A stretch of 64,000 nucleotides of DNA from a virus, in IMG/VR virus record IMGVR_UViG_3300036979_001044, positions 32,811 to 96,810 of that record; one strand, written 5' to 3'. The position numbers were made by a program, and so were the translations under genes. The notes under the pieces are model-generated. The model ran no database searches. It was not told the origin of the DNA and saw only the letters and a list, made by a program, of their open reading frames with translations. Below, piece by piece: positions 1 through 61,993 of the stretch. Each line of letters opens with the position of its first letter. Position 1 is the first letter of the stretch.

Positions 1-1194
1 GAAGTCCCAGTTGGCCGGAACCAACACGTCGGTGCTGTCTCCCTCGCCCAGTCGAAGGGTTTGGTTGAAGGTGGCCCGCACCCTATCTTTGGCCGTGGCT
101 ACGCAGGCGGTGAGTTGTGCTCGATCCAACTCCTGGGTGATGGAGTTGGTCTGCACCGCAACTGAATAGGTATGGTATGTGTCGTAGGAAAATATCGAAT
201 AGTAGTACAGCTCGGCTGGATCGAGATCGCTATCGAGGAATCCTTCATCCGTTCCCTGATACGCCAGATCACCTGATCCTGGAGAACCCGGGTAACCAAT
301 TTTGGAACGACGAACGATGACACTCACGAATTCTGGATTGACCGGATTGTCCCAGGAAAGAGTGATCTGCTTCTGGGCTGGCCCGGGAATCGCCACGAAA
401 TTGGTCACCGGCTCAAAGGTAGCGCTTAGCTCCATCTGCGCTAGGTTCTGGAAATCTTCTAACGCGCTCGCGCCGGTAAGCACAAGCGACTCCGCAAGTA
501 CCTCTTCGTACCGTAACGGATAACCGGTGTGGTAGAGATCGAGAACTTCAGCTGGCGTCCAGGCACGAGCGGAAATAGCGACCTCGTCCTGCCGACCATT
601 CAACTGATCTGCTCTACCAGTCCAAGGTGTAGCCCCGTCCGCCCTTGCTCCGATCACGCAAGGATAGGCCTTTGAGTGAATTGCCCCAGCACCGGCCACT
701 ACCTTGTTCAAGTACCCATTGAGGTAGATCCTCGCGTCGATGCCATCGTAGACGCACGCGACATGGTACCAAGTAGAAACAGCTAGCACTGAAGCCGAGA
801 GCAAAGTGACGCCAGTGCTGTCTGACAGTCCAACCTCAAACCGGATCTTCCGTGCGCTATCTATCGCCGCTGCCCACTGTAGATCTGCCCAGGTTGAGAA
901 CGCTGTTTGTTTGGTAATGATCGAGTACAGTCCAGAAGGGGTGCCTGCCAGGTACACCCAAGTCGAGATAGAAAGTACCGTTGGGTTGAAAAGCGCATCG
1001 GTTCCCAGGTTGATATACTGGGAAGACCCGTTGGTCTGAACTCCCTGTCTCAGTAGCGCCGTGGGCCAGGTGGGTGTTCCAATAGCGGTACCATGTAAAA
1101 GATTGGTGTGCGCGTCGTTGGCGTTGCCGTCCAACTTGTAATAAGCAATCAATCCATCGAGCAAGGTCAGATGTGTTTTGATCGAATTGCCCAT
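1..1194 (-). CDS. LamG/concanavalin A-like plus FN3-like domain virion protein (3' truncated by window edge)
   Basis: Missing from the ORF track because there is no stop in the window. My translation from ATG at 1194 gives MGNSIKTHLTLLDGLIAYYKLDGNANDAHTN...WYHVACVYDG...YLNG...QITLSWDNP...YYYSIFSYD, open to base 1. Paralog of 1196..2182. Confidence 0.8.
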   Translation of the reverse strand, partial: MGNSIKTHLTLLDGLIAYYKLDGNANDAHTNLLHGTAIGTPTWPTALLRQGVQTNGSSQYINLGTDALFNPTVLSISTWVYLAGTPSGLYSIITKQTAFSTWADLQWAAAIDSARKIRFEVGLSDSTGVTLLSASVLAVSTWYHVACVYDGIDARIYLNGYLNKVVAGAGAIHSKAYPCVIGARADGATPWTGRADQLNGRQDEVAISARAWTPAEVLDLYHTGYPLRYEEVLAESLVLTGASALEDFQNLAQMELSATFEPVTNFVAIPGPAQKQITLSWDNPVNPEFVSVIVRRSKIGYPGSPGSGDLAYQGTDEGFLDSDLDPAELYYYSIFSYDTYHTYSVAVQTNSITQELDRAQLTACVATAKDRVRATFNQTLRLGEGDSTDVLVPANWDF

Positions 1195-2176
1195 ATCAAC
1201 CTCTCTTGCCCTTACGATGGAATCCACTACCGACCCCTGCTTCGCGGGGCCAGATAGGGTGTGGTTGATGGGTCAGTTCATTAACATCGGGGTTGGTCCT
1301 AAGCAACGACGGGAACGCCAGCACTCCAGCAGTATCATCGAGCGTTCTTGCGAGGGCAAAGGACCAACTTGTTTTGTCAATTGCATATTGACTTGGATGC
1401 GGATTGCGGATCAACGCCCGCACCTCTGAACTTGCTCCTTGAACGGGTTGAGGTAGGTTGATGATCGATGCGCCTTGCAGGGAGTCTACATATTGCTCCT
1501 CATAGCGGAGCGGATATCCGGTGTGGAACAGGTCGATCACTTCGGCCACTGTCCAAGCACGACCTGCAATGGCAACCTCGTCCATCCTCCCATTCAGATA
1601 GCTTGCCCTGCCAGTCCAAGGGGTAGATCCATTTGCTCGCGCACCGATAACGCAGGGATAGGTCTTCGAGTGAATGGTGCCAGCACCGGTCGCAGTGTTA
1701 TTCAAATAGCCGTTTAGATATACTCTCGCATCCGTGCCGTCGTAGACACACGCGACATGATACCAGGTAGAAAGAGTCAGCGCCGAAGCAGAAAGAACCG
1801 TTACACCCGTGCTGTCTGATAGCCCCACCTCGAACCGGATCTTCCGTGCGCTATCCACCTCAGCCGTCCACTGAAGGTCTGCCCAAGTGGAGAATGCCGT
1901 GCGCTTGGTCACAAGCGAAAAGACGCCACTAGGTGTTGCCGCCAGATATACCCAAGCCGAGATAGAAATCGCCGTTGGGCTGAAGAGAGCATCAGTTCCC
2001 AGATCGATGTACTGGGAAGATCCGTTGGCCTGAAATCCCGTCTTGAGCATGGCCGTGGGCCAGGTCGGAGTGCCTATCGCTGTTCCATTGAGGACGTTGG
2101 TGTGCGAATCGTTCGCGTTCCCATCCAGCTTGTAGTAGGCCAGCAAACCACTCAGCAAGGTCGGGTGCGTTTTGAT
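503..2176. repeat. Diverged tandem duplication of a ~0.68 kb LamG-coding unit (~503-1178 and ~1496-2176)
   Basis: Shared DNA blocks such as cgtagac.cacgcgacatg.tacca.gtagaaa, aaccggatcttccgtgcgctat and gccgtgggccaggt. Boundaries are approximate. Confidence 0.8.
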
Positions 2177-2182
2177 GTCCAT
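1196..2182 (-). CDS. LamG/concanavalin A-like domain virion protein
   Basis: LamG motifs LLAYYKLDG, ISAWV, WYHVACVYDG, VYLNG, GRMDEVAI. Confidence 0.85.
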   Translation of the reverse strand: MDIKTHPTLLSGLLAYYKLDGNANDSHTNVLNGTAIGTPTWPTAMLKTGFQANGSSQYIDLGTDALFSPTAISISAWVYLAATPSGVFSLVTKRTAFSTWADLQWTAEVDSARKIRFEVGLSDSTGVTVLSASALTLSTWYHVACVYDGTDARVYLNGYLNNTATGAGTIHSKTYPCVIGARANGSTPWTGRASYLNGRMDEVAIAGRAWTVAEVIDLFHTGYPLRYEEQYVDSLQGASIINLPQPVQGASSEVRALIRNPHPSQYAIDKTSWSFALARTLDDTAGVLAFPSLLRTNPDVNELTHQPHPIWPREAGVGSGFHRKGKRG

Positions 2183-2214
2183 TGTTTCAGCGCCTTTCTA
2201 GCAACCATCCAACG

Positions 2215-4098
2215 TCAATCGGTCTCAGGCCCCATCGCCACCCATTGTCCGCTGTCGGTGCAGTAGAACAGGCGGAAGGTTTGGTAGACTCCTTGAAAGC
2301 GGACCTTGATGGTATCCTCGTTGACTGCGTTCCAGACGTTGGAAACTGAGCGGACGTGCGGGATGTAGCCAGGTCGCTTTTGATGGTCCTGCCCCATGCC
2401 TCTGTAGTCTGAGTCGCTATAGGTCTTCATGCGCCATGGAACAAGGAACAGTGCGCCCGTGGCTGCTTCTGGATGCAGGTCAACGCAGTTGAGGAAGTCA
2501 GTTTGTTTGTCGGAGACAACCCACTGGGCGTATTGAAAGTCGGCTTGCCATGGTTTGACGGACCCAAGTGGCTGGAAGCTGCTTACACCTGCGGAGCAGC
2601 GCCACTTGATGCGGTGGACCGGCATGAAGGGGGAGATGAAGACTCTGTCGTTGCGGGCTGAGTGCCACACGGTGGCGTTTCCGTACCCTACGCCCCCAAA
2701 TTGAACCGACTCCTCTCCACCAGAGGCGCCCTGTTGCGGTCCGACGTGGCATCGGATGGCCTCTCCGATTAAGGCGCCGGCCATGTAAGAGTAAGCTGTG
2801 CCGAAGTGAAGAGTCAGGACGTTGGTGACTTCGTTGACGTCTGTCACTAGCACGGGCTCGAAGATCGCCTCATCTGCGTCCAGTTGAGGCCAGGAGTTGG
2901 ACCCCCCTCCACCCGGGGCGCCCTGGTAGGTGTTGCTGACTTGGTTGCGGTTATTGTGCCAATCGGTACCCGGGTTGCAGGAGAGCAGCATGTACCGCCC
3001 ACCCTTGGTGAACAGGTTGGCGTCTGCTACTTTGATCTGTGTGGCTCCAGCGGCTATGTTGCCGTCTCCCGTTGAGGTGGCGGTAGTCATGTCTGTGCTG
3101 CCGAAGGGGGTGTAAAGGCCGACGTAGTTGACTAGGTAGTTGTTGTTGCCCATCATGCAGATGATGGCTACACCGTCTTTGGAGCCATAGAACCAGCAGT
3201 CTCTTGGCGAGGAGATCAGGTTGTAGCGCAGGCCTGGACATCTGCGGTTGGATACCCCGGCAAGGGTCTGGTGTCTGCTGGCCTGCGGGTGCATGGCGGG
3301 GGAGAGGATTTGGATGTGCTGCGCTCCAGGTGAGGTGAAGAAGGGTGTGTAGGAGGTAAGGCGTAGTTTGCCGGTTGTCTCGACTGTTTGCCCGGTAATC
3401 CAGCGCATCTTGCCGTCTGCTGTCTTCAGCAGGGAGCAGTAGTTGAGTTTGTTGTCGTCGTAGGTGGTGTTGAGGTCGCTGGAGTCCATCACGATGTCGT
3501 CGGTGCAGGCTGTGTCTCCAAGGGACCAGAGTACGGTGCCCGTGCTTGACATGAGCGGGTTGACCAGCTCTCTCAGGCCTGAGATGGTCGTTGTGGGGTA
3601 GCTGTTGGTGATGCGGACAGCTACGTCCTTTACGTCGTGTACGGCGGCGGTGGTGCCGTACATGCCTCTAACGCATGAGGTGAGCGTTGTGCCTATGACC
3701 CCTACCTGGATCAGCTCGTCGCCTATTTGGATGATTTCTCCGTTGGCCAGGTTGGGGATGGCGGCTTTGAGCGTGATTGAGGTGTCGGTTGCCAGGATGC
3801 CGGCGGCCAGGTAGGCAAGGTCTGGGCACCACCCTTGTGGTGACTGGATGCTCATGGTGCCAAGGTGGAGGGGGATGTTCTGGTTGCCGTCCTCCCCGTT
3901 GGACTTCAGGAACCAGCCCAGTATGTGGGCGTGTTTGTCGTCTTGGGCGATTCTGAGGGAGTCATCCCCACCGGGACCGTCGCGTGTCGGACTTGCTGGA
4001 TCGTGAATCCAGCCGCAGTCGGTGACGAGAAAATCTTTCAGCTTCTTTGCGAAATCAGCTGTCGAGTTGCACAGGACATGCTTGCCCTTGAAGGCCAT
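2215..4098 (-). CDS. Putative tail fibre / receptor-binding virion protein
   Basis: 627 aa downstream of the baseplate genes. Contains the beta-rich unit TSITL...GEIIQIGDELI...CVRGMYGTTAAVH common in virion appendage proteins. Confidence 0.55.
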   Translation of the reverse strand: MAFKGKHVLCNSTADFAKKLKDFLVTDCGWIHDPASPTRDGPGGDDSLRIAQDDKHAHILGWFLKSNGEDGNQNIPLHLGTMSIQSPQGWCPDLAYLAAGILATDTSITLKAAIPNLANGEIIQIGDELIQVGVIGTTLTSCVRGMYGTTAAVHDVKDVAVRITNSYPTTTISGLRELVNPLMSSTGTVLWSLGDTACTDDIVMDSSDLNTTYDDNKLNYCSLLKTADGKMRWITGQTVETTGKLRLTSYTPFFTSPGAQHIQILSPAMHPQASRHQTLAGVSNRRCPGLRYNLISSPRDCWFYGSKDGVAIICMMGNNNYLVNYVGLYTPFGSTDMTTATSTGDGNIAAGATQIKVADANLFTKGGRYMLLSCNPGTDWHNNRNQVSNTYQGAPGGGGSNSWPQLDADEAIFEPVLVTDVNEVTNVLTLHFGTAYSYMAGALIGEAIRCHVGPQQGASGGEESVQFGGVGYGNATVWHSARNDRVFISPFMPVHRIKWRCSAGVSSFQPLGSVKPWQADFQYAQWVVSDKQTDFLNCVDLHPEAATGALFLVPWRMKTYSDSDYRGMGQDHQKRPGYIPHVRSVSNVWNAVNEDTIKVRFQGVYQTFRLFYCTDSGQWVAMGPETD

Positions 4099-4101
4099 GG
4101 C

Positions 4102-13348: not shown

Positions 13349-13349
13349 T

Positions 13350-14781: not shown

Positions 14782-14791
14782 GGATCACTCC

Positions 14792-17377: not shown

Positions 17378-18047
17378 CGGTTTCCTCTCCGTCGTAGTAT
17401 ATGGATACGTTGGTATTGACCTCCCCAACATCACTCGGGCTTCCGCTTTTGTCAACGGCAATGCCCGAAACCCTGAAGGCCTTAGTCAAGCGAGAATCCC
17501 GAGAGATCTGCTGCAACTCGCGCTCGCAGTAGAAGATGATCCGCCGCAAAAAAAGATGCTCGGGCATGTAAGCCGGATCGAGCATCAGCTCCTCTCCAGA
17601 AACCTTGATGCTGGCCAAGCCTTTCTCGGTGAGCTGCTCCAGTCCGGCGAGCAAGATGGCCTTGGCCATCTCGTAGTAGTAGGCGGTGGTGTCGGGATGC
17701 TCGGAGATGACGGTCAGAAAATAGGTGTGCTCCCAGATGGCTGTGTTGATGTCGCAATGATAGTATTTATCGCTCTCGTCCATCACCATGCCGCCGTCAT
17801 CGCCGAGGACGGTCTGGCTTTCGCCCTCACTGCCCAAGGTAACAGCAATGGCCGGGTACCTGTTATCCTGGCGGGAGTAGCCGTTGACCAGAACGATCGG
17901 GTGGGCCGCGAAAAAGATTTTTATCGCTGCGACCTCGGCGTCGGATAAACCGTAGTTTTCCAGAAAAATATCTTCCAGAATGAGCGGGTCAGCGACGATA
18001 GCGTCAAAGCCCTCTTGGAGCAGATCGATTAGGTACCGTTGAATCAT
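17358..18047 (-). CDS. Putative tail terminator / completion protein
   Basis: YPAIAVTLGSEGE motif; located just before the sheath. Confidence 0.6.
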   Translation of the reverse strand: MIQRYLIDLLQEGFDAIVADPLILEDIFLENYGLSDAEVAAIKIFFAAHPIVLVNGYSRQDNRYPAIAVTLGSEGESQTVLGDDGGMVMDESDKYYHCDINTAIWEHTYFLTVISEHPDTTAYYYEMAKAILLAGLEQLTEKGLASIKVSGEELMLDPAYMPEHLFLRRIIFYCERELQQISRDSRLTKAFRVSGIAVDKSGSPSDVGEVNTNVSIYYDGEETDAGDQT

Positions 18048-22066: not shown

Positions 22067-22448
22067 CCGCTTGCCCTTTCTCCCCGAGGAGGGTCCAGAT
22101 TCGCGCCAACAATCGAGCCAATGGTTTGACCGGCTTGCCCAGCCAATCGTTGACATCATGGCGCAAATAATCCAACTGTATATCCACTCCTTCTACCGCG
22201 CTCAGCACAATGATGGGGAGATCTAGCGTACTGCGCTTCAACTCTTTTCTGGCGTATTCGATCACTTGCCAATTGCATGCCTTTGCCAGGCCGATGTCAA
22301 TCACCAGAACATCTACCTCGAAGCTCACCAGGTGCTCCAGCGCTCCTTCCACTGTTGCCGCTTCCAGAATCTGGAACCCATAACGACTCAGGTACTCTCG
22401 GTGCACGACCTGGGCTTGTGCATCCTCGTCCACAAGCAACACCCGCAT
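22047..22448 (-). CDS. Single-domain response regulator (receiver domain)
   Basis: MRVLLVDED (acidic pocket), VLVIDIGL (phospho-Asp), PIIVLSA (Ser/Thr), WLGKP (Lys-Pro), LLARI. GGAG RBS upstream. Confidence 0.85.
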   Translation of the reverse strand: MRVLLVDEDAQAQVVHREYLSRYGFQILEAATVEGALEHLVSFEVDVLVIDIGLAKACNWQVIEYARKELKRSTLDLPIIVLSAVEGVDIQLDYLRHDVNDWLGKPVKPLARLLARIWTLLGEKGQADAVDQH

Positions 22449-25269: not shown

Positions 25270-25419
25270 TGCCCCCAACCTAACTCAAATCGGCATTAGG
25301 GACAAGCCGCTGGAGAAGAAAGCAGTGGCCCCAATGCTCAGAAAAATCGGGGGCCACTGCTTCCAGAAAAAGCGGAGTCCCTCCAGAAAGGGGAAATCCA
25401 GAAAAACCCCGCTACTATC

Positions 25420-41931: not shown

Positions 41932-42142
41932 TTACTTAGCTCCCAAGCAGTTTGCCCCGCTGGCTAAAATACCGTTGGCTGCAACCGATCACGTAAGGCG
42001 TTGGACACGCCGTACCTAGAAACTTTACCATCCCGGGAAAAACTCGTTCCAGAACAACATACCGAGCCGTGCACATCGGTTTCTGGAAAACCTTCCGTAC
42101 TTCCACAGCTCGCCGAATCTCACTCGACGGTGTTGTACACGT

Positions 42143-42625: not shown

Positions 42626-45600
42626 TCACTTGTTCTTGTCCGATTTCAGCTTCTCGCTGATCCAGGCAACGATCTTATGCTGATCCACCGCGATGTACTC
42701 ATTGTAGAGGTGCCCGACTCCATCGCTCTCCATGATCTTGCGCAACTTGGCCAAGTTCTCCTCGGGCGTCCCGCCCTTCTTGCACACGGTACGATAGAGG
42801 ATAGCGGCACGATGGGACGTATCGAGCTTTTTGAACGTCGCCTCGAAATGCGCGATGCACTGGTCGTGGGTGTCTTTGTCTGGAATCCAATCACGCATCC
42901 GGAACTTGTAGTAGCGGCAGGAAAGAGAATCGTTTTGCGGCATGTCCTTGATCGGGATGGGCAGCCGCAGCACCTTGGCCTGGGCGTCGGCGATACCGCG
43001 ACCGGTCGGATCGACAATGACCTTGTTCTTCGGGTCGTAGTAGATGCTGTTGCAGGTGAAGTCGCGGCGCTCGAAATCCTTGCGCATCTCGTGGTCCACC
43101 CGAATGTCCGGCCACCACTTGCCGTTGACCGGGTTGGCGCACTGCTCGCCGTCCGCGGTCGTATAGGACACCATGCCTGTCAGGTCAATGCCCGGGCCAC
43201 TCTTGGTGGCACAAACAGTCATCCAGGCCTCGTCTCCAGGGGCCTTGCTAGTGATCCGCCTGTCCCCGGGCAAATCCGCACCAACTTTGTTGAAGCAAGT
43301 TTTCATCACCGTCGCGTCGGCCGTGGTCACCATATCGAAGTCCTTGAGCTTGGAGATCACCTTCTCATCGGTGATCTCACTTCCCTCTTGGACCAGATTG
43401 AGCAGATCGCGCACCGCGCCGCCAACCAGATAGGTCTCGCGGCCTCGTTCCCAGAGCCAATCGACGTACTCGGTTGGGGTGTGCGTACCCACCGCAGCGG
43501 TGGCCATCAACTCGTCCAGAATCTTCTGGTGCCGTTCATTGGGGCGGACGAAAGACTTTTCTGGAAGATCATGCACCGCTGACTTGTAGTGCTCGGGGCC
43601 CGCCTCATTGGACTTGAATCCCTTCCAGTCCTCGAAGTGCAGTTGCGTCGAGTGGTTCTTGTCGTGCGGGCCCTGGTAGTCCGGCCCAAAATCAACGATC
43701 GGATGCCCCGCTTGATCCGTGCCGATATACGTCCCCGGAATCTCCTGGCCCTTTACGATCGCAGTGAGCTTGGCGCCGTTTCTCATGTACCCCTTCAGCA
43801 CCTTCGGAACTTTCAGCTCGCTCTTGGGTACGAGCTGGATCTCGCCCACCCGCTCGACTTTCGATGGAGCAAAAACGGTATCCGCCTTCACCTTCAGCGC
43901 GGGCGCCTGGGCGGGTTTGGGCTTTCCCGGCTTCTCCGCCTTTTCTGGAAAGACCGCCAGCGGATCGGCGTTCTCAATTTTCTGGAATAGATCGCGACTC
44001 ACCGTGATCCGGTTGTAGGTCGGGCCGGGCTCAATGGATGCCTCAATCTGGAAATGCTTCCGCAGCTGCTCGATGACCCCCTTGTGCCCGGGAGCGAACT
44101 TCAGCACCACCAGATCAGGATCGGTGTGGTGCGGGCGCAAATGCCCATCCAGGTACGTCATGAGTCGCGCGGTCCAGCCCGGTTCCTTGGTCTGTCCACC
44201 GTTGCGGAAGTAGATGGGCGTGTTGCCATCCCAGGCGACGATCTTACCTCCGCGGGGCCCAGTCGCGATGATGGCGGCCATCGACTTCTCCAGGTCAGCT
44301 TTGTCCTGGGGGCGGAGCGCTACCTTGGCGGTGTTGCCGATGACGTAGCGCCTACGCTCTTCGGTGCCCTCCCTCGCTGAGTCCTGCCCGGTCACCGCCG
44401 CGTCGGGCAAAACGATCGGGTAGACGTTACGCAGAGGCTCGGTGACCGTGTAGATCTCCTTGTCCCGCTTCAGTCCCTCGGCGACCTCTTCCTCCTCATC
44501 CTTCCAGTCGCGGAGCAAGTCAGCCGGATCGATGTGAGGATTGGGACCTTTTTCTGGAACGCGCCGCTTGGGGGTCTCGACCAGGTAATTGGCCGCGGTG
44601 CCATGGCCGCCCGCGCGATTGCCCGCCTGGCTGGTGGCCGCGCCGATGTCCGCCGATACCTGCCCGCCCTTGCCCAGCCCGGATAGCGGGATGACCAATC
44701 GGAGCTTGGGCGACTCCTCGGCGCTCTGCACCCGGGTGAGCCCCACCCAGCGCTTGAAGGCCTCGATGTCCATGGGGTTGGTCTGGAGGAAGAACTTCTC
44801 CGGCCGGTCGTAGCTCAATCCGTAGGCGCGCTCGGCATCCTCCTGATTGGAGAAGCCCAGCATGCACTTCTGCTCGTCCCAGATGCCGGTCTCGGGATTC
44901 TGCTGCTCGATGACGTAGGCCATCTCGGAGTCGGGGTCAGGGCCGATGAACACGTCGAGAGGATCATCGTCGGCGCCGGTGGTGCCCAAGATCTCCCCGT
45001 AGGCGTGCAGCATCCAAGTCTTGTCGGTGCCCCCGTCCGGGGTGTGAAAGGTCCGCGAGGTGCCCTTTGGGTTCTCGATGTGGATGGGCAATCCCCAGAG
45101 ATGCACCAGCTGCTCGCCACTGGAGAGAGCCTTGCGCAGATCGTCTTCGCGCAGGAGCGCGCGCATGAGCGCCTCCTCGCTCTTGTAGACCTTGCCGCCC
45201 TTGCCCCCGGGCACCAACTCCCCCTCCTTGTTGAAGCCGTAACCGTCTGGAATCCTTAGTAATTGACAAGAACAATGCGGATGGATCGTGCCGATGACCG
45301 CTTGCCACTCGGCGGTCTTCTTGCCCACGTTGGTGCCGTTGGCTACCAGGGTCGAGAGCGGGAAGATGCGCGGGTTGCCGTCCGGGCCGTTGTAGAGCCG
45401 GTCGCAGTGCTTGCAGTTATGCACTGCTAACCCATTGGCAAAATAGCTCTCGTCTTCCTCCACTTCCAGATTGAACACTTCACCTGTGAAAGGAACCACA
45501 GCAATGCTGTTGACTCCTCTGGCATAGAACGATATAGGCTGCGCATGAACCGTAGACGCAATATTCCCAAATCCGAATTGATTCGACTCTGGAAAACCGG

Positions 45601-46954
45601 AAAACATACGATTGGGTCTTTGGGGCGGCACTTTCAAGCCGGCAGTACCACAATCAAACGCCGCTTCCGTGAATGGGATATCCCCATACCCAGCCGAACC
45701 GAAAGCCAGATCGCCAACTTGCGCAGAATGACCCCCGAACAAAGAAAAGCCCTCACCGAGAATGCGCGTAAAGCGCGTAAACTGGCATGCAGCCCAGCTG
45801 CGCAGCATGCCAAAGCTCTGACCAATCAGCGCACCCAGCGCTCGGTTACTCCCACCACCCAAGCCTTGGCCAAAAGACTCGCAGCGTTCCATCCCGTACT
45901 TGAATTCGCTTTCGATAAATTCAACATCGACATTGCTATCCCGCATCTGAAGATAGCGATAGAGGTAGACGGCGGGGGGTGGCATTACACGGGAGCCGTC
46001 CGTAGACGAGATCAAATCAAAGAGCTTCTCCTCTGGGAGCAAGGCTGGATCGTGTTGCGCGTTCCCGACAGTTGCGCAGACCAAGTAATCGCCGCAGTGA
46101 ATCGAATCAGCGCGCCGCCAGTTCATATTAACTAGGAATGGATGATTTTCTGTAGCATAGGGTTTCTGCCCATCAATCCCGATCAGTTTTCCAGAAAAAT
46201 GACGCTGAAAAGCGTGGGTCACCTTCCGCCAGCGCAGCTTATGGGTGAGCACCTCTTCCCCGATACGCACCTGCTCGATGGGAATTTCCCCGCTACGGGT
46301 GTGCACCAACGTGCCCGCGGTAAAACAAGCATCCGGCATTACCCGCTTTGCAACCAGGGCCTCCTCACCGTAGCGCTTGGCGATGTGGTCGGCGAGCCCG
46401 GTCTGCATGGCGGTCTGCTTCTCGGTGACCGCGATGCGATCCCAGTCGCGGGTCCAGTCCTCGCTCGCCCAGCCGAGGTCGCTCTTGAGCTGCTTCGCCG
46501 TCTCGCGCTTGGCGATATTCTGGGCGGTCTTGTCCCGCACAACGCGCTCCAGCTTGGCGCGGAGCTTGGCGTCGGCCTCGATGAGGATGTTGCCGGTCTG
46601 CTGGTTGACCTTGTTGCCCAGGCCCTTCAGGTAGCCAGCGGCGCTGAGCTGGGCGAACTTCACCGCCCGCTGCTCGGGGACCGAGAGCGGGATAGGGTTC
46701 TTGCGAACGTATTTCTGGAAAGCGTCGAAGCTCATGTTGGCCGTGGCCTTGTTCTGGAGAATTCCCAAGAGCTGGCCGTAGAGGTAGGCCTGCTCCACCG
46801 AATTCAAGTGCCCCTCGATGAGCCCAGCCTGCTCCAGCTCCGTCAAAACCCCGGGGTCAACCGCCTCCGGGCCGATGGCCGAGACGATGAAGGCGTTGTG
46901 GTGCTTCTCCACGATCTTCTGGACTTTCTGGAGTTGCTCGGGGGTCAATAGCAT
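42626..46954 (-). CDS. MuF-like head morphogenesis protein with intein, fused to inorganic pyrophosphatase and CCA-adding/poly(A) polymerase-type nucleotidyltransferase domains
   Basis: MuF: RDWDRIAVTE, DAC|..|CKHC, HPHCSC. iPPase: IENPKG.R...YG.I.GT.GADDDPLDVF...DEQK.MLGF. NTase: YLVGGAVRDLL, KDFD, DFERRDFTCN. Confidence 0.85.
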   Translation of the reverse strand: MLLTPEQLQKVQKIVEKHHNAFIVSAIGPEAVDPGVLTELEQAGLIEGHLNSVEQAYLYGQLLGILQNKATANMSFDAFQKYVRKNPIPLSVPEQRAVKFAQLSAAGYLKGLGNKVNQQTGNILIEADAKLRAKLERVVRDKTAQNIAKRETAKQLKSDLGWASEDWTRDWDRIAVTEKQTAMQTGLADHIAKRYGEEALVAKRVMPDACFTAGTLVHTRSGEIPIEQVRIGEEVLTHKLRWRKVTHAFQRHFSGKLIGIDGQKPYATENHPFLVNMNWRRADSIHCGDYLVCATVGNAQHDPALLPEEKLFDLISSTDGSRVMPPPAVYLYRYLQMRDSNVDVEFIESEFKYGMERCESFGQGLGGGSNRALGALIGQSFGMLRSWAACQFTRFTRILGEGFSLFGGHSAQVGDLAFGSAGYGDIPFTEAAFDCGTAGLKVPPQRPNRMFSGFPESNQFGFGNIASTVHAQPISFYARGVNSIAVVPFTGEVFNLEVEEDESYFANGLAVHNCKHCDRLYNGPDGNPRIFPLSTLVANGTNVGKKTAEWQAVIGTIHPHCSCQLLRIPDGYGFNKEGELVPGGKGGKVYKSEEALMRALLREDDLRKALSSGEQLVHLWGLPIHIENPKGTSRTFHTPDGGTDKTWMLHAYGEILGTTGADDDPLDVFIGPDPDSEMAYVIEQQNPETGIWDEQKCMLGFSNQEDAERAYGLSYDRPEKFFLQTNPMDIEAFKRWVGLTRVQSAEESPKLRLVIPLSGLGKGGQVSADIGAATSQAGNRAGGHGTAANYLVETPKRRVPEKGPNPHIDPADLLRDWKDEEEEVAEGLKRDKEIYTVTEPLRNVYPIVLPDAAVTGQDSAREGTEERRRYVIGNTAKVALRPQDKADLEKSMAAIIATGPRGGKIVAWDGNTPIYFRNGGQTKEPGWTARLMTYLDGHLRPHHTDPDLVVLKFAPGHKGVIEQLRKHFQIEASIEPGPTYNRITVSRDLFQKIENADPLAVFPEKAEKPGKPKPAQAPALKVKADTVFAPSKVERVGEIQLVPKSELKVPKVLKGYMRNGAKLTAIVKGQEIPGTYIGTDQAGHPIVDFGPDYQGPHDKNHSTQLHFEDWKGFKSNEAGPEHYKSAVHDLPEKSFVRPNERHQKILDELMATAAVGTHTPTEYVDWLWERGRETYLVGGAVRDLLNLVQEGSEITDEKVISKLKDFDMVTTADATVMKTCFNKVGADLPGDRRITSKAPGDEAWMTVCATKSGPGIDLTGMVSYTTADGEQCANPVNGKWWPDIRVDHEMRKDFERRDFTCNSIYYDPKNKVIVDPTGRGIADAQAKVLRLPIPIKDMPQNDSLSCRYYKFRMRDWIPDKDTHDQCIAHFEATFKKLDTSHRAAILYRTVCKKGGTPEENLAKLRKIMESDGVGHLYNEYIAVDQHKIVAWISEKLKSDKNK
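45416..46327 (-). mobile_element. Intein (class 1) in the MuF domain, 304 aa
   Basis: Block A CFTAGTLV, block B ATENHPF, block F VFNLEVEEDESYFANG, block G VHN followed by Cys+1. Splicing restores PDA-CKHC. Confidence 0.9.
45545..46135 (+). CDS. HTH plus DUF559/Vsr-like PD-(D/E)xK endonuclease, antisense inside the intein
   Basis: IDIAIPHLKIAIEVDGGGWH...RDQIKE..L..QGWIVLRV; N-terminal HTH-like TIGSLGRHFQAGSTTIKRRF. Confidence 0.85.
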   Translation: MNRRRNIPKSELIRLWKTGKHTIGSLGRHFQAGSTTIKRRFREWDIPIPSRTESQIANLRRMTPEQRKALTENARKARKLACSPAAQHAKALTNQRTQRSVTPTTQALAKRLAAFHPVLEFAFDKFNIDIAIPHLKIAIEVDGGGWHYTGAVRRRDQIKELLLWEQGWIVLRVPDSCADQVIAAVNRISAPPVHIN

Positions 46955-48791: not shown

Positions 48792-51700
48792 GCTCCACCC
48801 CAAATTCTGGAACCGGCCGTGGCTCCAGACACGATGTGCGGCGGCAGCTCAGCCGCCTTGCTCTGGATGTACTGCATGGCCTGGCCGTAGAGCGCGTCGG
48901 CGTCTACCGAAAGCGCCTCTGGGGGCATCTGGTCCAGGAATTGCACCGGGTCGCCCTTCTTGGCCTTGGCGAAGACGAACGTCGCCTTGTCCTTGTTCTT
49001 GCTATGAAAAGCGGAGAAGTTCTTGGCCCCGTGGGCGTAGCTGTCGGCGAACAGCCGGGCGTCGACCATGCGCCCGATGCTCTTTGCTCGATCCACCGCC
49101 CCGGGCCAAGTGGTCATCGGATCAGCGGACACAAACAGAAAAACTGGTTTGATTCCGCGCTTCTCGCACTCCTCCATCAACCAAGGATTCTCCGTCCCGT
49201 TTTGCTCGCCGGCCGCATCCCAAGTTGCCGCTACGCTCTGGGCCAGCTCGGGGCGCGCACCCAGCGCCGAGCCCTTCCCCCCAGCCACCCCACCGCTGGT
49301 GACCAGGATCTTCCGCTCGCCCTCGGGCATCTTGGCGATCTCGTCCAGCCGTTTCATGAAGGCGCGCTTGACCACCGCGTTAGCCGTCTGGTGGAGCGCG
49401 GTGTTGTACAACGCCCGGGCCTGGGCGCGATCGGGATGGATGGGCTTGCCCTTCTCGTCCGGGGGCAGATCGGGCCGGGTCCACTCAGGCATCATGCTCT
49501 TGGCCGCGTCGGTCTCGAAAATGAAGTTGTTCTTCTTGACCACGTCGTAAAAGGCGGAGGCCATCCCATCGGAGTCCGCCTCGAAGGCATCGGCGAACTT
49601 GCCCTCCACCGCCCGCTCCTCCGCGGTCAGGTTGGGCAACCGGGGAATGGTGGGCGGCGGAGCGACGGTCTTGCCCGGCAGTCCCACCCTAGCCGCGTCG
49701 GCGACCCCATCCCCATCAGCGTCGACCATGGGATCAACCTGGTAGGCCAGCGGGTCTCCGCCCGCCGGCGGGGTGAGCCCGGCCTGCGGGGCCCGGGGAG
49801 CGCTCTGCATCTGGGGCGCGATCTGCGCCGCCGGAGTCGGGGCGCCCATCTGGGGCGGGGGTTGCGGGGTCTGCGCCTGGGGAGTTGGGGCCGGTTGCGC
49901 GCCAGCTCCGCCCCCAGTCCCTTCCTCGGTCCAAGGAATGGTGTGCTCCGGGTCCGCCCACTTGCCGCCCCGGGGCCCGATAAACATCCCGGCCTTGAAC
50001 AGCGAGAGCTGCGCGCTCTCGGATTCGTCCAGTTCCAGAAAATCGTCCAGAGACTTCTGGAACAGCAGATCCTTCACCTTCTGCTTGTCGACCGCGACCA
50101 GGTGGTATTGCCCACCCTCAAAGGTCGGCTCGGCGATTCCATATTTCTGGAGCTGGGCCAGCGCCTCGGTCGCATGCTTGGGGACCTTGACCATCACCTT
50201 GGTCGGGTCTCCGTAATGCTCCTTGATCTTGATACCATGCTCTTGGATGAATCCAGAAAATGCCTGGGCCGGCACAGACCCCTGCTCAGGCGTTAGCTTT
50301 GGTGCCGGCGCCGGCTCAGGCGTAGCAACCGCAGGTTTAGCCTCCGGGGCCTTCTCGGGCGCAGCTGTTGGCTCAGGAACATACGCAGGAGCCGGCGCGG
50401 GCTTCTTCCCCGCAGATACCGCAGTATCCACAGCTTTGGCCCCCATTTGCACATATGCTTCTTCCGATGCCAGGTAGCCCTTCTTCTTTCCGCCCTTCCC
50501 CTCCCAAGCCCAGAAGACATCGCCACCGATTTCAACTTTGGTGAACGACTGCCCGTACCCCAGATGGATTGTTGTTCCCGCTGCAAGCGAATTCAGCTTT
50601 CCAGAATATTCCGCCGTGATCGTGTCAGTATCTTTCTGCGCTTGCTCCAGCGAAGCTGCAATGCCGGCGGGGTCTACAACATAGGGAGTCGCAGACTCCT
50701 TCTTGACCTCCGCAGCTAGCTTGTCAAACATCTCCACGGTCAGCGGCTTGTCCACCCCGGAACTGGGCGAAGGAACTCCCTGCCAGGGCACCTCGACCAC
50801 CGTCGCCGAACCAGGCAAGATCTCGGTGCCAGCCGTTTGCGGCTCGGGCAGGTTGGGGGCTAGCTCGGGGTGATCCATGTCCGACAAAGCTGGGACCTGC
50901 GAAGTCGCAGCGCTCTCCGCGCCACCGCCCGCCGTGGGCCCGGCGACCTTGCCGTGGATCTGGGTGAGCAGTTCATCCACGGATATCGGCTTGCTCATCC
51001 ATTCCATCTCCGCCGCGGTGAGCTGCTTGCCTTGCGTGAGCTTCTGCCCCAGCTCGTACTTGCGCCGCAAAATGTCGTTCACGTTCTCGTCGAAGAGATT
51101 GCCCTCGGCGGTCATCCAGTAGACGTTGACCGCGTTCTTCTGCCCAATGCGATGGGCGCGATCCTCCGCCTGCCTGACATCGGCCGCCGTCCAGGGCATG
51201 TCATTGAAGACAACCTTATCGGCCGCTGTCAGCGTCGCACCAACGGCCATGGATTGACGGGTTGTCACAAAGACACGCTTCTCACCGATGAAGTTGCCAG
51301 CCTCATCCTTTTTCTGGAACTCCTTCTTGGCCGCTTCACGGGCGTCATCCTGCATCTGCCCGTGATGCAGGATAGCCAGGTCGCCGAACTTCTCGGCGAT
51401 AGCCTTGGCCGCCTCGACCGAATCGCTGAATACGATGACCTTGGAATCGGAGGTATCGAGGATTTCCTGCACCATCGACTCGGTGACCGGAACCTTGCCC
51501 TTGGCAATCTCAGCCTTGAGCTTAGAAAACGCCCCAATCGTATTCTGCTCTCCCATGTCGGGTAGACCAGGGACTGGGTGCTTGACGATCGACGTGGTCT
51601 TTTCTGGAAGGTCTTTGAGCACCGCGGTCTTCTGCCGGGCGATGTAGACCTCGTGCATGTCCATCCAGAGCCCGCCGATGGGTGCGGTCTTGATCGCGTT

Positions 51701-54580
51701 CTTGGTGAACTTCCCTGGCGCCACCATTTCCAGCTGGGTGAATAGCTCCTCCTTCTTGTTCTTCACCGCCGTTCCAGAAAGCAGGATGTGGTGCTTCATC
51801 CCCGCGCCTATTTTCTGAACTGTTTGAGTTTGTTGTGCTTTTTGAGATTTAATTCTGTGGCTCTCGTCGATCACGATGGTGTCGAACCCGGCCGCGGCGA
51901 TAGTCGCCTCGAACTTGGCCAGCGACTCGTAGTTGACCGCCGCGATGTTGATTCCAGAAAGGTCGGGAACCTTGCCCTTCTTTAGATCAGCGGCGACCAG
52001 CTCCACCCCATGAAAGTAGTTGGGAAAGAACTTCTCGGCCTCCTCCAGCCAGTTGCGCCGAACGACCTTAGGACAGACAACGAGCACGCGCTTGTCGTTC
52101 TTCGCCGCCCAGGCAAGGGTCTGAATGGTGTTGTGGGTGACCACATGCCCTTGCACAATGAACGTGCTCTGGAGCGACTCGACCGCGATGCAACGCATCT
52201 CCTCCTCGCGCTCGCTCGGGCAGATATCCACGATGGCCCGGGCCAAGCTCGACGCCTCCCAGTGCTCGGCCTTGCGCTCTAACGAGTAGGGGTTGAACGC
52301 CGCGCGGATGTTAACCCGGTAGCTCGGTAGCCCGATGCGAGTCTCGCCGTTATGCTGATAGCGCGGAGCGCGCTTGATCGAGAGCGAAGCGATCGCCCCC
52401 AGCGATCGGGCAAGAAAGATGACATCGTTTGCCAAACGCCTGGACGAGGTGCTGTAAATGCAGCAAGATCCAATCGGAGTATCCCCATCAGTGTCCATGA
52501 GCCCGGCAAGCAACTGCTCACGTTCCTCAATCGAAGCGTAGAGGTATCTTTCTGGAATGAACTTTTCTGGAGAGAGACAACCTTGCAAGCCCAACTCACG
52601 CAAGCTGTCGAGCACCGGATTCTTTCCGTTGATTCCAGAAATTCCCCACGTCGGACAATCGCCCTCCCCAACCTTGCGGGGAACCACAACGCAACCGGCG
52701 GGCAGTAACGCCGCCACCCGCTCAGTGATCTCCATGTCCGGTTTCGTCCAACTCACCGAAGTACCCCCGATTGCCCCATCACCGATGAGCACACCCAACA
52801 CGTAGGGGTCGATCGGCAACTCGCCGCGATACTCAAACTCCTGGGGCAACGCCACCGGTAGATACCAACGGTATTGGCCCTTGCCGTGCCCAGTACGCAT
52901 CCCTTCTTCCAGAAGCTGGGCGGTGGTGCGGACCTTGCCTTCGTTCTCCCGAAAGCGATCCATCGCAGTGTAGACATGCCAGAGGTGCTCGGCGTCGCAC
53001 TCGACTACTTCCCCGTCGCGGGTCTTGACCGCCCAAACCTTGCGCTGGCCCTGGGGATAGACCCCGGATACCCGCACCGCAGCACCGGTCACCGGATCGA
53101 TGACCTCATCGCCCACCTGCAAGTCCCCGAACCGCCTCCAACCCTTTGGGGTCAACGTAAGTGTTTGATTTACTAGCGCTTTACCAAGACCCATTTCGTC
53201 GCCGATGAGCGCGTTGCCGTTGGCCTTGTCCAGAAAACGCACGCACTCGTTCTGGAAGGACATGAGCTTCAGGTCAGGGCCGAGCTTGGCCTGCACCTCG
53301 GGGATGGGCTTTTGCAATTCAGCGATATCCTGATCGCGCTTGATCCGCGCTTCCTTCACCCCGTGGGTCATGATCTGCCACTTGGGGAAGAGCACGGTGA
53401 GCTTGCCTATCGCCTCCTCGGTCAGCTCCAGATCGAAGGTCTCGCGGGCGTGCGTGACCGGGTTGTACTTGGTGATTCCAGAAATCTGCCCACCCTTGTT
53501 CGTGAAGAGGGTGTTGAAGGCTGGCGCGTAAGGCGCGTAGAACTCGAAGATCCCGTCGGGTCGCTGGCGCACCACGATCACGTCGGTGACCTGGTGAGCG
53601 TTGATGCCCTTGATGTACTCCTCGATCTTGTCCCCGGTGAGTGCCTCGCCCGCAGTGGGCCCAGTGGCCTTTGCCGGGGTGCCGAGGGGTTCCAAAACCT
53701 CGATGCCGAACTTGGCCATGTCCTTCTTGTAGGCGGCGAAGTCGAAGCTGGCCAACTTGAGCTTGCTGATCGCGAAAGCCTTCTTGTTGCCGTCGTAGAT
53801 GCCGCCATACTTTTTCTGGACCTCGCAGTACTCCTTGAAGTCGTTCTTGAGGAAACCGTTGAGCGGCAAGTAGAGCGAGCCGAAGGTGTCGTGGTACTGG
53901 GGCTGGATGCTGAAGCCAGAAGTCTTGGGCTTCTCGACCAGGTGCAGCCCGCACTTGAGGTAAGCCTCTGCCCCGAAGTGGGAAGCGATCTGCCCCTTGT
54001 ACTTCTTCAGCATGTTCTTCATTCCAGAAATGTTGCCGCGCACCGAATGCCAGTAGCCGAAGTCGTAGTGGTTAAAGCCGGTGTCGTCGATGACATTGTG
54101 CATCCCGTGCTGCATAGCGTAGAGCGCGTCGCCGATCTCGATGAGCTTGTCCTTCAGCTCGGCCTCGGGGTAGGGGACGATCTGGGGCGCCTCCGGCTCG
54201 GGTGCCTGGCGACTGACCGGTTGATCTCCAGTCCAGTGGATGGTGTGAGCCGAATCAGCCCACTTGCCCCCGTGCGGCCCGATGAAGAGCGCCTTGCCGA
54301 ACGGTTCCCCCTCCTCCTCCGCTGCTCCGATTCCTCCGATGACCACGTCTGCTATCTCCTGGAGCATGAGGTCCAGTTGGTGGGCGTACAGCTCGCGGGT
54401 TCGCGCGGCCAGCTCCTGGAGCACCGGATACTTCAGCTCCTGCTCCTTCTTGGGCAGAGCCTTCTCCAGCATCTCCGCTATTTCTGGAACTTCGCTGGAC
54501 AGCATCTCGCCCAGCCGTTCCAGGAGCTGCCCCGACTTCTCCCGGATTTCCTCCGGGCTTGCCTGAAGCTCCAACCGCAT
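48788..54580 (-). CDS. Polyvalent protein: intein-containing SNF2-family helicase plus C-terminal zeta-toxin-like P-loop kinase
   Basis: DEMGLGK|intein|TIQ, DESH, LSGT, GATLTAA, QAEDRAHRIGQ. C-terminal SGGVAGGKGS...R...GRMV. Confidence 0.88.
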   Translation of the reverse strand: MRLELQASPEEIREKSGQLLERLGEMLSSEVPEIAEMLEKALPKKEQELKYPVLQELAARTRELYAHQLDLMLQEIADVVIGGIGAAEEEGEPFGKALFIGPHGGKWADSAHTIHWTGDQPVSRQAPEPEAPQIVPYPEAELKDKLIEIGDALYAMQHGMHNVIDDTGFNHYDFGYWHSVRGNISGMKNMLKKYKGQIASHFGAEAYLKCGLHLVEKPKTSGFSIQPQYHDTFGSLYLPLNGFLKNDFKEYCEVQKKYGGIYDGNKKAFAISKLKLASFDFAAYKKDMAKFGIEVLEPLGTPAKATGPTAGEALTGDKIEEYIKGINAHQVTDVIVVRQRPDGIFEFYAPYAPAFNTLFTNKGGQISGITKYNPVTHARETFDLELTEEAIGKLTVLFPKWQIMTHGVKEARIKRDQDIAELQKPIPEVQAKLGPDLKLMSFQNECVRFLDKANGNALIGDEMGLGKALVNQTLTLTPKGWRRFGDLQVGDEVIDPVTGAAVRVSGVYPQGQRKVWAVKTRDGEVVECDAEHLWHVYTAMDRFRENEGKVRTTAQLLEEGMRTGHGKGQYRWYLPVALPQEFEYRGELPIDPYVLGVLIGDGAIGGTSVSWTKPDMEITERVAALLPAGCVVVPRKVGEGDCPTWGISGINGKNPVLDSLRELGLQGCLSPEKFIPERYLYASIEEREQLLAGLMDTDGDTPIGSCCIYSTSSRRLANDVIFLARSLGAIASLSIKRAPRYQHNGETRIGLPSYRVNIRAAFNPYSLERKAEHWEASSLARAIVDICPSEREEEMRCIAVESLQSTFIVQGHVVTHNTIQTLAWAAKNDKRVLVVCPKVVRRNWLEEAEKFFPNYFHGVELVAADLKKGKVPDLSGINIAAVNYESLAKFEATIAAAGFDTIVIDESHRIKSQKAQQTQTVQKIGAGMKHHILLSGTAVKNKKEELFTQLEMVAPGKFTKNAIKTAPIGGLWMDMHEVYIARQKTAVLKDLPEKTTSIVKHPVPGLPDMGEQNTIGAFSKLKAEIAKGKVPVTESMVQEILDTSDSKVIVFSDSVEAAKAIAEKFGDLAILHHGQMQDDAREAAKKEFQKKDEAGNFIGEKRVFVTTRQSMAVGATLTAADKVVFNDMPWTAADVRQAEDRAHRIGQKNAVNVYWMTAEGNLFDENVNDILRRKYELGQKLTQGKQLTAAEMEWMSKPISVDELLTQIHGKVAGPTAGGGAESAATSQVPALSDMDHPELAPNLPEPQTAGTEILPGSATVVEVPWQGVPSPSSGVDKPLTVEMFDKLAAEVKKESATPYVVDPAGIAASLEQAQKDTDTITAEYSGKLNSLAAGTTIHLGYGQSFTKVEIGGDVFWAWEGKGGKKKGYLASEEAYVQMGAKAVDTAVSAGKKPAPAPAYVPEPTAAPEKAPEAKPAVATPEPAPAPKLTPEQGSVPAQAFSGFIQEHGIKIKEHYGDPTKVMVKVPKHATEALAQLQKYGIAEPTFEGGQYHLVAVDKQKVKDLLFQKSLDDFLELDESESAQLSLFKAGMFIGPRGGKWADPEHTIPWTEEGTGGGAGAQPAPTPQAQTPQPPPQMGAPTPAAQIAPQMQSAPRAPQAGLTPPAGGDPLAYQVDPMVDADGDGVADAARVGLPGKTVAPPPTIPRLPNLTAEERAVEGKFADAFEADSDGMASAFYDVVKKNNFIFETDAAKSMMPEWTRPDLPPDEKGKPIHPDRAQARALYNTALHQTANAVVKRAFMKRLDEIAKMPEGERKILVTSGGVAGGKGSALGARPELAQSVAATWDAAGEQNGTENPWLMEECEKRGIKPVFLFVSADPMTTWPGAVDRAKSIGRMVDARLFADSYAHGAKNFSAFHSKNKDKATFVFAKAKKGDPVQFLDQMPPEALSVDADALYGQAMQYIQSKAAELPPHIVSGATAGSRIWGGA
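52130..53179 (-). mobile_element. Class 3 (Ala1, WCT) intein with LAGLIDADG homing endonuclease, 350 aa
   Basis: Starts ALVNQT; EHLW (Trp), MRCIAV (Cys), VTHN (Thr) followed by Thr+1. LAGLIDADG motifs LGVLIGDG and LAGLMDTDG. Inserted in Walker A. Confidence 0.9.
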
Positions 54581-61055: not shown

Positions 61056-61057
61056 CG

Positions 61058-61993
61058 TTATCTCCTCACGATGAACTTCGGTTGAAGGGACTTCTCAGCG
61101 CCTTCCGTGGCACCTGTCCTAAGATAGAACCGACCCTTGCGGAATTCCAGCTTTCCCCCCGCGCATCCCTTCAGCGCCTCCTCAACCTCGTCCGGGTGGA
61201 AGCGCTCAGCCATCTCGTCTCGAAGCTCGCGTAGGTGTGCTCCTTGATCCCCGCGCTCGCCGACCGCCTTGCAGATCTTCCCGTGCAGGTACTGGCGGCG
61301 CGCCTCCCGCCCATCCACATGAGCGTCGGGGCGCGATTGGTACTTCTCGGGATCGTAGATGTAGCGGTAGCCGTCTCCCTGGGGCACCCTTTTATGGTAA
61401 GCACCTCCCCGCGGCTCGGCCTTTTGCAAGTCCGCATTTGCGGAGGGTACGCCCTTTTGCAGCTCGTCGACCGTGACCACCTGGACCATCGACTTGCGCG
61501 CCGTCCTCCAGAAAGAAAGCGCCCGTTCCAGAATCGCCTGGCGCAGCTCGGGCTGGAGTCGGGCTTCCCGGGTCTGGGAGATGACTGCCTGCCGCAGCAC
61601 CAGCTCGTTGGTCGCCGAGGCTACCGCCTTTTCCAGAAAAGTCTCCCAGCTCTGCGAGGCCCTCGCATCGAAGCCCATCCCCCGAACCACGCTCGCCGCA
61701 CTTCCCATGGGGTCGGTGTTCTGGAGGAGTTGGGCAATCTCGGGCTGCCGCGGCATGCGCTCCAGATCACGCTGATCACGCATATCCGCCATTCGCTCCC
61801 GACTGGGGACCTGCCCGGGAATGCGCTGCAAACGGTACTGCACGGGTACCAGGCTTTTCCCAAGCCCGCCCATGCGCTTGAAGATACCCATGACATACCG
61901 CCAATCCTTAGCCCGACCTTGCGCTTCCGCCCTGGCCTTGGCCTTGCTCCAGAGACGTTCCTGCTCAGGGGAATGGACCACGTTCGCCGGCAT
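61058..61993 (-). CDS. Putative internal head protein
   Basis: Start MPANVV with an AGGAG RBS; LGK|SL, LEK|A, LQK|G and LQK|AEPRGGAYHKRVP...YRYIY. Confidence 0.65.
   Translation of the reverse strand: MPANVVHSPEQERLWSKAKARAEAQGRAKDWRYVMGIFKRMGGLGKSLVPVQYRLQRIPGQVPSRERMADMRDQRDLERMPRQPEIAQLLQNTDPMGSAASVVRGMGFDARASQSWETFLEKAVASATNELVLRQAVISQTREARLQPELRQAILERALSFWRTARKSMVQVVTVDELQKGVPSANADLQKAEPRGGAYHKRVPQGDGYRYIYDPEKYQSRPDAHVDGREARRQYLHGKICKAVGERGDQGAHLRELRDEMAERFHPDEVEEALKGCAGGKLEFRKGRFYLRTGATEGAEKSLQPKFIVRR

Follow-up and report, generated by a model that had tools for sequence, protein, structure and literature searches.

A short asymmetric DNA word is maintained throughout the genomes of a lineage of uncultured myoviruses

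Short words repeated at high density are classically known from bacterial chromosomes, where Chi, the DNA uptake sequences and uptake signal sequences (DUS and USS), the FtsK-orienting polar sequences (KOPS) and HIP1 have each revealed a DNA-handling machine. Chi sites are asymmetric, species-specific words of 5 to 8 nucleotides (nt) that protect DNA ends. Dispersed words bound by phage proteins are also of a known kind, represented by the stoperators, the C1 operators of P1 and the dyads of Cluster O phages. Here we describe an octamer, TTCCAGAA (on the other strand TTCTGGAA), that recurs throughout the genome of an uncultured myovirus. The window that we analyzed is a stretch of 64,000 nt, bases 32811 to 96810 of the 96,810-bp virus record IMGVR_UViG_3300036979_001044 (58.5% GC; genome G000 in the comparisons below). 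Our literature search found no paper on TTCCAGAA in phages.

The window holds 91 exact copies of TTCCAGAA/TTCTGGAA on both strands, against a mean of 2.17 and a maximum of 6 in 100 dinucleotide-preserving shuffles. The original prediction, made from the sequence alone, had put the number at about 85 to 90 where 1 to 2 were expected by chance, and every position that it listed matched a counted copy. In the whole record TTCCAGAA is the most frequent 8-mer, with 141 copies (75 on the plus strand and 66 on the minus strand). We permuted synonymous codons within each of 78 genes called by a codon-usage score, which keeps the proteins and the codon usage; this left 39.5 ± 2.9 copies in the whole record (maximum, 46), a figure that includes 18 noncoding copies untouched by the shuffle. 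The enrichment thus persists when the amino acids are preserved, and the earlier suggestion of a DNA-level signal beyond protein coding holds. The 123 copies in coding sequences cover all six classes of frame and orientation, and the remaining 18 lie in 8.2 kb of noncoding DNA at a density above that of the genes, in agreement with the claim that the octamer occurs in both orientations, in several frames and in intergenic DNA.

The octamer is the most frequent variant of an asymmetric recognition word, in which a core, TCCAGA, is preferably preceded by T and followed by AA. Its informative part is the hexamer TCCAGA, present in 314 copies in the whole genome against about 62 expected from an order-1 model. 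When all occurrences are aligned, T is preferred at position −1 (58%), followed by C, A and G, and A occupies position +1 in 66% and position +2 in 50% of the copies. The extended form TTCCAGAAA has 105 copies in the genome. Any single substitution at its six core positions reduces the number to background (0 to 1 copies, with about 1 expected), whereas forms with substituted flanks are still enriched 6- to 27-fold; at the level of the hexamer, one-off core variants show neither enrichment nor clear depletion. The one-mismatch variants that had been reported are therefore enriched at the flanks only. We found no mirror-image preference on the 5′ side of the core. The word extends asymmetrically to TTCCAGAAA(A) without a run of T on the 5′ side; neither TTCCGGAA nor TTCTAGAA, the true palindromes, shows enrichment in G000, with TTCCGGAAA (1 copy) and TTCTAGAAA (0 copies) at background. 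The proposal of a quasi-palindrome read by a dimer is not supported.

Spacing and strand bias had been named as checks on the signal. Counting both strands there is about one TCCAGA core per 308 bp, and the gaps between cores are Poisson-like, with a coefficient of variation of 1.05, a median of 213 against 214 expected and a largest gap of 2.1 kb. Only very short core-to-core distances are in slight excess, and the density of cores is nearly uniform across gene classes. Such Poisson-like spacing fits sites that act additively, in the manner of a dose. Of the called genes, 76 of 78 are on the minus strand, while TCCAGAA is found 106 times on the plus and 101 times on the minus strand; the corresponding counts in three relatives are 98/100, 103/101 and 167/169. 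Because the orientations are balanced while almost all genes share one strand, a signal linked to transcription is excluded. There is also no switch of polarity along G000, G001, G011, G012 or G020 (range test, p = 0.12 to 0.94), with G013 being borderline (p = 0.04). Together with the balanced orientations, this excludes a fixed polarity with respect to replication, as in Chi or KOPS.

Individual sites are conserved far beyond expectation. In the comparison with G001, which is about 71% identical at the nucleotide level, 60 of 99 aligned octamers (61%) are intact against 9.1 expected, the expectation being taken from all aligned 8-mers (9.2% intact in this pair); the reciprocal count is 60 of 88. 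In the pair G013 and G014, 48 of 100 TCCAGAC sites are intact against 12.3 expected. The sites that are not shared mostly differ from the orthologous sequence at 2 to 6 positions, and hence turnover of sites also occurs.

More than 440 stretches in IMG/VR encode a related capsid protein, and we compared 15 complete or nearly complete relative genomes. In these one-strand genomes k-mers driven by codon usage are strongly one-sided, and strand balance served as the filter for genuine marking with a word, which we call painting. Dialects of the word were seen in ten complete or near-complete relatives. G000 and G001 use TTCCAGAAA, G013 and G014 use TCCAGAC(G/A), and G020 uses GTCCAGAA, with 514 TCCAGA cores; G011 accepts two bases at core position 6 (TCCAG[A/C]AAT). 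Two sister lineages carry the palindromic core TCCGGA, G010 as TCCGGA(AA) with 319 copies and G015 as (G)TTCCGGAA(G) with 364 cores. G018 has the dialect TTCCGCAA, with 383 TCCGCA cores, G012 is weakly painted with TCCAGCAA, and more distant loci have GAGACAA(A) and CTGACAA. The family members G016, G017, G019 and G021 to G023 are unpainted. In trees of the capsid and portal proteins the painted genomes form a clade in which the unpainted low-GC pair G016/G017 is nested, and the painted G018 adjoins the unpainted G019. We considered whether orthologous sites were retuned en masse from one dialect to another and rejected this. Exact counterparts were found at just 4 of 28 aligned TCCAGA sites of G000, which are TCCGGA in G010, and at 3 of 25 sites in G014 versus G015, against about 0.6 by chance in a rough calculation; these numbers are too small, and we do not rely on them.

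The comparison of the family yielded further words. G018 and G015 have second, independent, strand-balanced words, GCTCGAGC (76 copies in G018, and also present in the contig L085, which was binned with a metagenome-assembled genome [MAG]) and GCCCAGG(T) (268 copies in G015). TCCGGA is absent from G012, where 48 copies are expected, and is depleted in G013 and G023; this looks like restriction avoidance of the very hexamer that paints the sister phages G010 and G015. An IMG/VR contig without protein similarity to these phages, L188 (32% GC), has 47 copies of TCCAGA in 12.5 kb against 13.9 expected. Among the matches listed in a paired 9-mer scan of viral contigs, most were AT-rich chance matches.

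The word belongs to the phage rather than to the candidate hosts that we tested, as the original prediction had supposed. The test covers MAG bins and one bacterial family, the Gemmatimonadaceae. Five MAGs bin related phage contigs. Two MAG "chromosomes" that include relatives of the phage are no evidence of integration, as both contain runs of N and are concatenated bins. A 6.6-Mb Gemmatimonadaceae MAG that bins a contig painted with TTCCAGAA has 406 copies, or 0.06 per kb, against 182 of the reversed control; its dense stretches are two phage contigs, and the density in the phage is 1.5 per kb. GCTCGAGC shows the same pattern in this MAG, being dense in phage contigs. None of 60 further Gemmatimonadaceae genomes is painted (at most 71 copies of TTCCAGAAA in 2 to 5.5 Mb, at most 0.02 per kb); the set includes the unpublished genome G048, on which no claim rests. 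Moreover, the same core occurs across phages of 46 to 63% GC and phages of equal GC carry different cores, which argues for a reader borne by the phage and not by the host. We infer that the reader is probably encoded by the phage.

Taken together, the data firmly establish that the word is a selected, DNA-level signal of the phage lineage, sharp like an enzyme's recognition site, independent of orientation, additive and evolving in its specificity.

Which protein reads the word? Phylogenetic profiling found no G000 gene that is present in all painted genomes yet absent from all unpainted ones, and no methyltransferase or nuclease tracks painting across the family. The genes confined to the two TCCGGA genomes are HNH endonucleases and unknowns, with no methyltransferase among them, and were rejected. 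G018 and G019 are too divergent in gene content (median identity, about 41%) to narrow the list. A protein with an SNF2 helicase domain was rejected because its helicase core is missing from several painted genomes and its apparent 80% matches are linker modules of 20 amino acids (aa). A candidate only is a 357-aa protein of the replication module, encoded at genome positions 13181 to 14254, with its real start at 14254. It consists of an N-domain with a Cys4 motif and a winged helix, a long basic linker and a DUF2924 C-domain. In the structural model, which has a predicted local distance difference test score (pLDDT) above 90 in both domains, the N-domain is winged-helix-like (ROK, DeoR, Lrp and Z-alpha domains match it with Z of 5 to 6.5) and the C-domain is similar to the C-terminal, DNA-binding domain of CcrM (Z of 5.3); none of these Z values is more than middling. 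The DUF2924 gene belongs to the core set of the family, and unpainted members have it, too. The 75-bp spacer directly upstream of the gene holds two plus two inverted copies of the word, an arrangement that is kept in G001 and reduced to one plus one in G011. Autoregulation of the gene was considered and rejected, as the cluster is found in these three genomes only and is missing from the painted G010, G013 to G015, G018 and G020. Our literature search returned nothing useful on DUF2924. Just upstream of this gene lies an open reading frame (ORF; L007:14330-14800, minus strand) with a C-terminus like sigma-factor region 4 or a LuxR-type helix-turn-helix, which, judged from its sequence, may encode a phage sigma-like factor; comparable ORFs precede the DUF2924 gene in G010, G015, G019 and G020.

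We tentatively favor the explanation that the word is a replication or recombination signal on both strands, namely, an extended priming site or loading site for the phage's own replisome; to name the primase or the replisome as the reader is speculative. According to this hypothesis, the phage lineage would keep the TCCAGA word over its whole chromosome, and a sequence-specific DNA-handling protein, most probably phage-encoded, would read it. Each copy would add a small benefit, whatever its orientation relative to genes, and reader and word would drift together, giving rise to the dialects of sister lineages. The word would act in replication or recombination, by priming or loading on both strands, and not in the control of transcription; it could be the start or loading site for a replisome with a DnaG-type primase and a DnaB helicase. 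The complementary strand, 5′-TTTCTGGAA-3′, holds a CTG-type trinucleotide with a central pyrimidine and would template the primer pppAGAAA. The simplest reader would be a core protein, given that painting is not tracked by any accessory gene. Every dialect has a purine at core position 4, which corresponds to a pyrimidine in the template at the putative start, and the complements of the dialects contain CTG, CCG, GCG and GTC. GAGACAA and CTGACAA, the dialects of more distant loci, have TTGTC in their complements, a T7-type primase site. Spacing per strand (560 to 687 nt for the hexamer and 1291 to 1467 nt for the octamer) is on the scale of Okazaki fragments, which is weak evidence; the densities of DUS and HIP are similar. 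We also count in favor of the replication signal the two to four direct copies at 11-bp phasing that adjoin AT-rich DNA in the control regions of G000 and G001. It has been argued that effective primase sites are longer than a trinucleotide (PMC8599759). With considerable doubt, we extend the hypothesis to a private DNA addressing code of this family of sediment phages with genomes of roughly 100 kb, in which an enzyme from the core of replication or recombination, for example the primase, would have evolved a specificity for 6 to 9 bases and the genome would have been rewritten at hundreds of positions, the two drifting together into incompatible dialects.

Several points weigh against priming or loading sites. 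The unpainted G016, G017, G019 and G021 to G023 share the same set of primase, helicase and polymerase, and painting is therefore not obligatory for the replisome. Known primases need just three to five bases, and we know of no painted primase word. The spacing shows no selection against long gaps, and the inverted or head-to-head intergenic copies resemble operators of a protein that binds double-stranded DNA as much as priming sites at an origin. A scan of the primase and other core proteins for residues shared by convergence in G010 and G015 gave background, with conservative changes only, and no reader protein emerged from the profiling, gene-content or convergence scans. The host test is, as described, limited to MAG bins and one family. 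Almost as likely as priming or loading sites, and in itself possible rather than probable, is an array of docking sites on double-stranded DNA, in which a phage-encoded monomer would bind the asymmetric site and mark or coat the chromosome of the phage, serving as a self-tag against nucleases, as an organizer of the nucleoid or of packaging, or as a ParB- or Noc-like loader; self-marking and genome organization are among the roles that the original prediction had suggested. Such a protein could also regulate at clustered copies, and the DUF2924 protein is a candidate for it. The binding energies of proteins on DNA typically give rise to a strict core with graded flanks, and the dispersed phage words named above count for docking, as do the phased copies in the control regions of G000 and G001, the palindromic TGCGGAA(A)TTCCGCA pairs in a control region of G018, the inverted copies upstream of the DUF2924 gene and the modeled resemblance of its product to winged-helix domains and to CcrM. 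However, 300 to 500 sites per 100 kb are ten times the density of any described array, no accessory gene correlates with painting, the proposed protein is encoded by unpainted members, the cluster upstream of its gene is missing from several painted genomes, and no ParB or HU-type protein turned up in Pfam scans.

The remaining explanations place the reader or the driving force elsewhere. The word could be meant for a host factor, as a Chi-like signal for host RecBCD or AddAB that would protect the phage DNA when broken, or as a decoy or recruitment site, with the dialects reflecting different hosts. Breaks that can occur anywhere would require both orientations, Chi sites are likewise asymmetric and short, and no core gene is missing from the unpainted lineages nested in the painted clade, which is what host-dependent painting would predict. 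We nevertheless regard this as unlikely, given that neither the candidate host MAG nor 60 genomes of its family have an enrichment of the Chi kind, that cores do not follow the GC content of the phages and that the phage has its own RecA-like protein, Mre11/Rad50 and RuvC. Distinctly unlikely is a molecular drive of the HIP1 type, in which mismatch repair, methyltransferase-linked or otherwise sequence-specific, would turn near-cognate sequences into the word and the single copies would have little or no function. Enzyme-sharp specificity and Poisson-like spacing would fit, a Vsr-like nuclease ORF is present (Table 1), and the second words of relatives (GCTCGAGC in G018 and L085; GCCCAGG in G015) resemble restriction-modification sites. 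However, PF00145 and PF01555 (C5 and N4/N6 methyltransferases) are absent from G000, G001, G010, G011, G012, G015 and G020, and protein scans found no N6_Mtase or Dam family; a methyltransferase could still be supplied by the host. The Vsr-like ORF was rejected as a repair driver, as it is absent from G001, which has the same motif, and sporadic elsewhere, and as the intein that contains it is missing in other strains; it is a mobile homing endonuclease. Nor are one-off core variants below expectation, and the nonconserved sites differ at several positions. Genome-wide repression through stoperator-like sites of an immunity repressor, a role suggested by the original prediction, is hardly credible. 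The word resembles the sites of Cluster A mycobacteriophages in being asymmetric, phage-specific, intragenic and variable among lineages, but its orientation is independent of transcription (106/101 with nearly all genes on one strand), its density is about ten times higher, and the phage has an SPO1-like myovirus gene set with its own replisome. About 70 proteins were scanned against Pfam and PHROG without a match to an integrase or repressor family; many small ORFs are unannotated. Loading of internal head proteins, also proposed at the outset, received no support.

Local arrangements of the word within the window are collected in Table 1. The head-to-head composite class has 3 occurrences against about 0.5 expected, which is not significant after correction for multiple testing. 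The motif-poor stretch fits recently acquired DNA that is not yet painted; other motif-poor stretches are a CobS-like block and orphan ORFs, accessory genes common to the closest relatives only. The main noncoding control region lies about 7 kb before the window (L008:9380-9790, genome positions 25380 to 25790). It has AT-rich DNA, two short inverted repeats and four GCACAG-AAA-CTGTGC palindromes, followed by four direct TCCAGA copies spaced by 11, 11 and 8 bp. The control region of G001 has two direct copies 11 bp apart, adjoining AT-rich DNA, and at the same place carries TGCACAAA-N-TTTGTGCA palindromes. This region probably serves as operator or origin for another DNA-binding protein, a dimeric one, and the copies of the word within it fit either iterons or priming sites at an origin, or operators.

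Table 1. Features of the window that bear on the TCCAGA word, in window coordinates
Feature	Position	Strand	Context
Dispersed set of 91 TTCCAGAA/TTCTGGAA	446..61638	both	Subset of the 314 TCCAGA cores of the genome
Motif-poor stretch, 2 cores in 2.9 kb	1196..4098	-	Tail-fiber-like genes confined to closest relatives
Direct pair TTCCAGAAAAATATCTTCCAGAA, 15 bp apart	17958..17980	+	Within coding sequence
Head-to-head composite TTCCAGAATCTGGAA (TCCAGA-A-TCTGGA)	22362..22376	.	Noncoding; recurs at 33381-33395 and 41188-41202
Three direct cores TTCCAGAAAAA, CTCCAGAAA, ATCCAGAAAAA, 20 + 15 bp apart	25361..25393	+	Intergenic spacer; genome positions 58172, 58192, 58207
Inverted pair GTTCCAGAAC ... GTTTCTGGAAAA, 34 bp apart	42047..42088	.	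Intergenic spacer after 2685-aa gene
Vsr/DUF559-like nuclease ORF	45545..46135	+	Antisense within intein of MuF-like protein; PF04480, PF18741

The record represents an uncultured myovirus with sheath, baseplate and portal, and its major capsid protein is 40% identical to those of SPO1-like Bacillus phages. Its replication and recombination set comprises PolA with an intein, a DnaG-type primase (genome positions 18436 to 19455), DnaB, an SF2 helicase, the RecA-like protein, Mre11/Rad50 and RuvC. Judged from the 109-kb relative G001, the record is about 91% complete; the missing end (G001 L095:1-13000) encodes the large terminase, a PHP protein, a deoxynucleoside kinase, a DnaJ-like protein and an ADP-ribosylglycohydrolase, a possible counter-defense enzyme. 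IMG/VR labels the record a provirus, although phage synteny extends to both of its ends. Contigs of the phage are found in sediment and lake metagenomes from 11 studies, and a DNA search of a phage collection gave no match. Adjoining the portal gene are genes for giant proteins with unusual mixtures of modules (window positions 42626-46954 and 48788-54580). One combines a MuF-like N-terminus, an intein, an inorganic pyrophosphatase and a CCA-adding-type nucleotidyltransferase; the other is the SNF2 helicase with a LAGLIDADG intein. Linker modules of about 20 aa, up to 87% identical, are common to several giant proteins and distant relatives. Both inteins are polymorphic: contigs from other sediment and lake runs skip 915 to 930 bp at 45416-46347 in the MuF-like protein and 1062 bp at 52126-53189 in the SNF2 protein, and they have alternative inserts of about 1 kb at 45241/45276 and 51817/51863.

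In the bacterial systems named at the outset the word is chromosomal. The word described here is similar to these in density and sharpness, but it marks the genomes of a phage lineage and not those of the candidate hosts, and single sites are under selection. The series of dialects (TCCAGA, TCCGGA, TCCAG[A/C], TCCGCA, GAGACAA and CTGACAA), together with the unpainted relatives, makes the question of the reader tractable. If the replisome were the reader, the phage would provide the first case in which a genome has been rewritten to suit its own primase or loader; with an addressing code of this kind, the phage replisome would be restricted to its own DNA, and a barrier could arise between relatives that infect the same cell. 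If the reader were a coat or self-tag protein, the word would reveal a novel means by which a virus distinguishes its own DNA from that of its host. In either case the word is a practical marker for binning fragments of these phages.

How does the word compare with described systems? It fails the defining features that we tested for stoperators, Chi, HIP and parS arrays. The stoperators of Cluster A, read by L5 gp71, are likewise asymmetric, phage-specific and intragenic, with a specificity that co-evolves across related phages, but they are 13 to 14 bp long, number about 25 to 35 per genome and are oriented with transcription, whereas here 140 to 500 copies of 6 to 9 bp are balanced between the strands. 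Chi, too, is an asymmetric, species-specific and over-represented word of 5 to 8 nt; it is a host word with replichore skew, whereas the phage word has no skew or polarity and the candidate hosts are not enriched. HIP1 (GCGATCGC) of cyanobacteria resembles it as an octamer found about once per kb through genes, with alternate words in some lineages, but is palindromic and chromosomal and has cognate methyltransferases, whereas the phage word is asymmetric and this phage and most of its relatives lack a methyltransferase. ParB-parS and Noc arrays use palindromic sites of 14 to 16 bp and ParB, in contrast to the asymmetric 6 to 9 bp here and the absence of ParB from our scans. Primase sites, such as 5′-(G/T)(G/T)GTC-3′ for T7 gp4 and 5′-CTG-3′ for E. 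coli DnaG, are strand-specific short words with a central template pyrimidine and a cryptic 3′ base and are required on both strands about every kilobase; to our knowledge, no primase word has been reported that is enriched 50- to 100-fold or conserved site by site. In its statistics the word is closest to DNA uptake sequences and their dialects, the DUS of Neisseriaceae read by ComP and the USS of Pasteurellaceae. These paint the chromosomes of competent bacteria and spread by transformation, whereas ours belongs to a virulent-type phage with blank candidate hosts, and an uptake machinery is therefore neither its reader nor its drive. What the phage word shares with DUS and USS is a density of about one copy per kb in both orientations and several frames, inverted intergenic pairs, a sharp core with preferred flanks, positional conservation and dialects.

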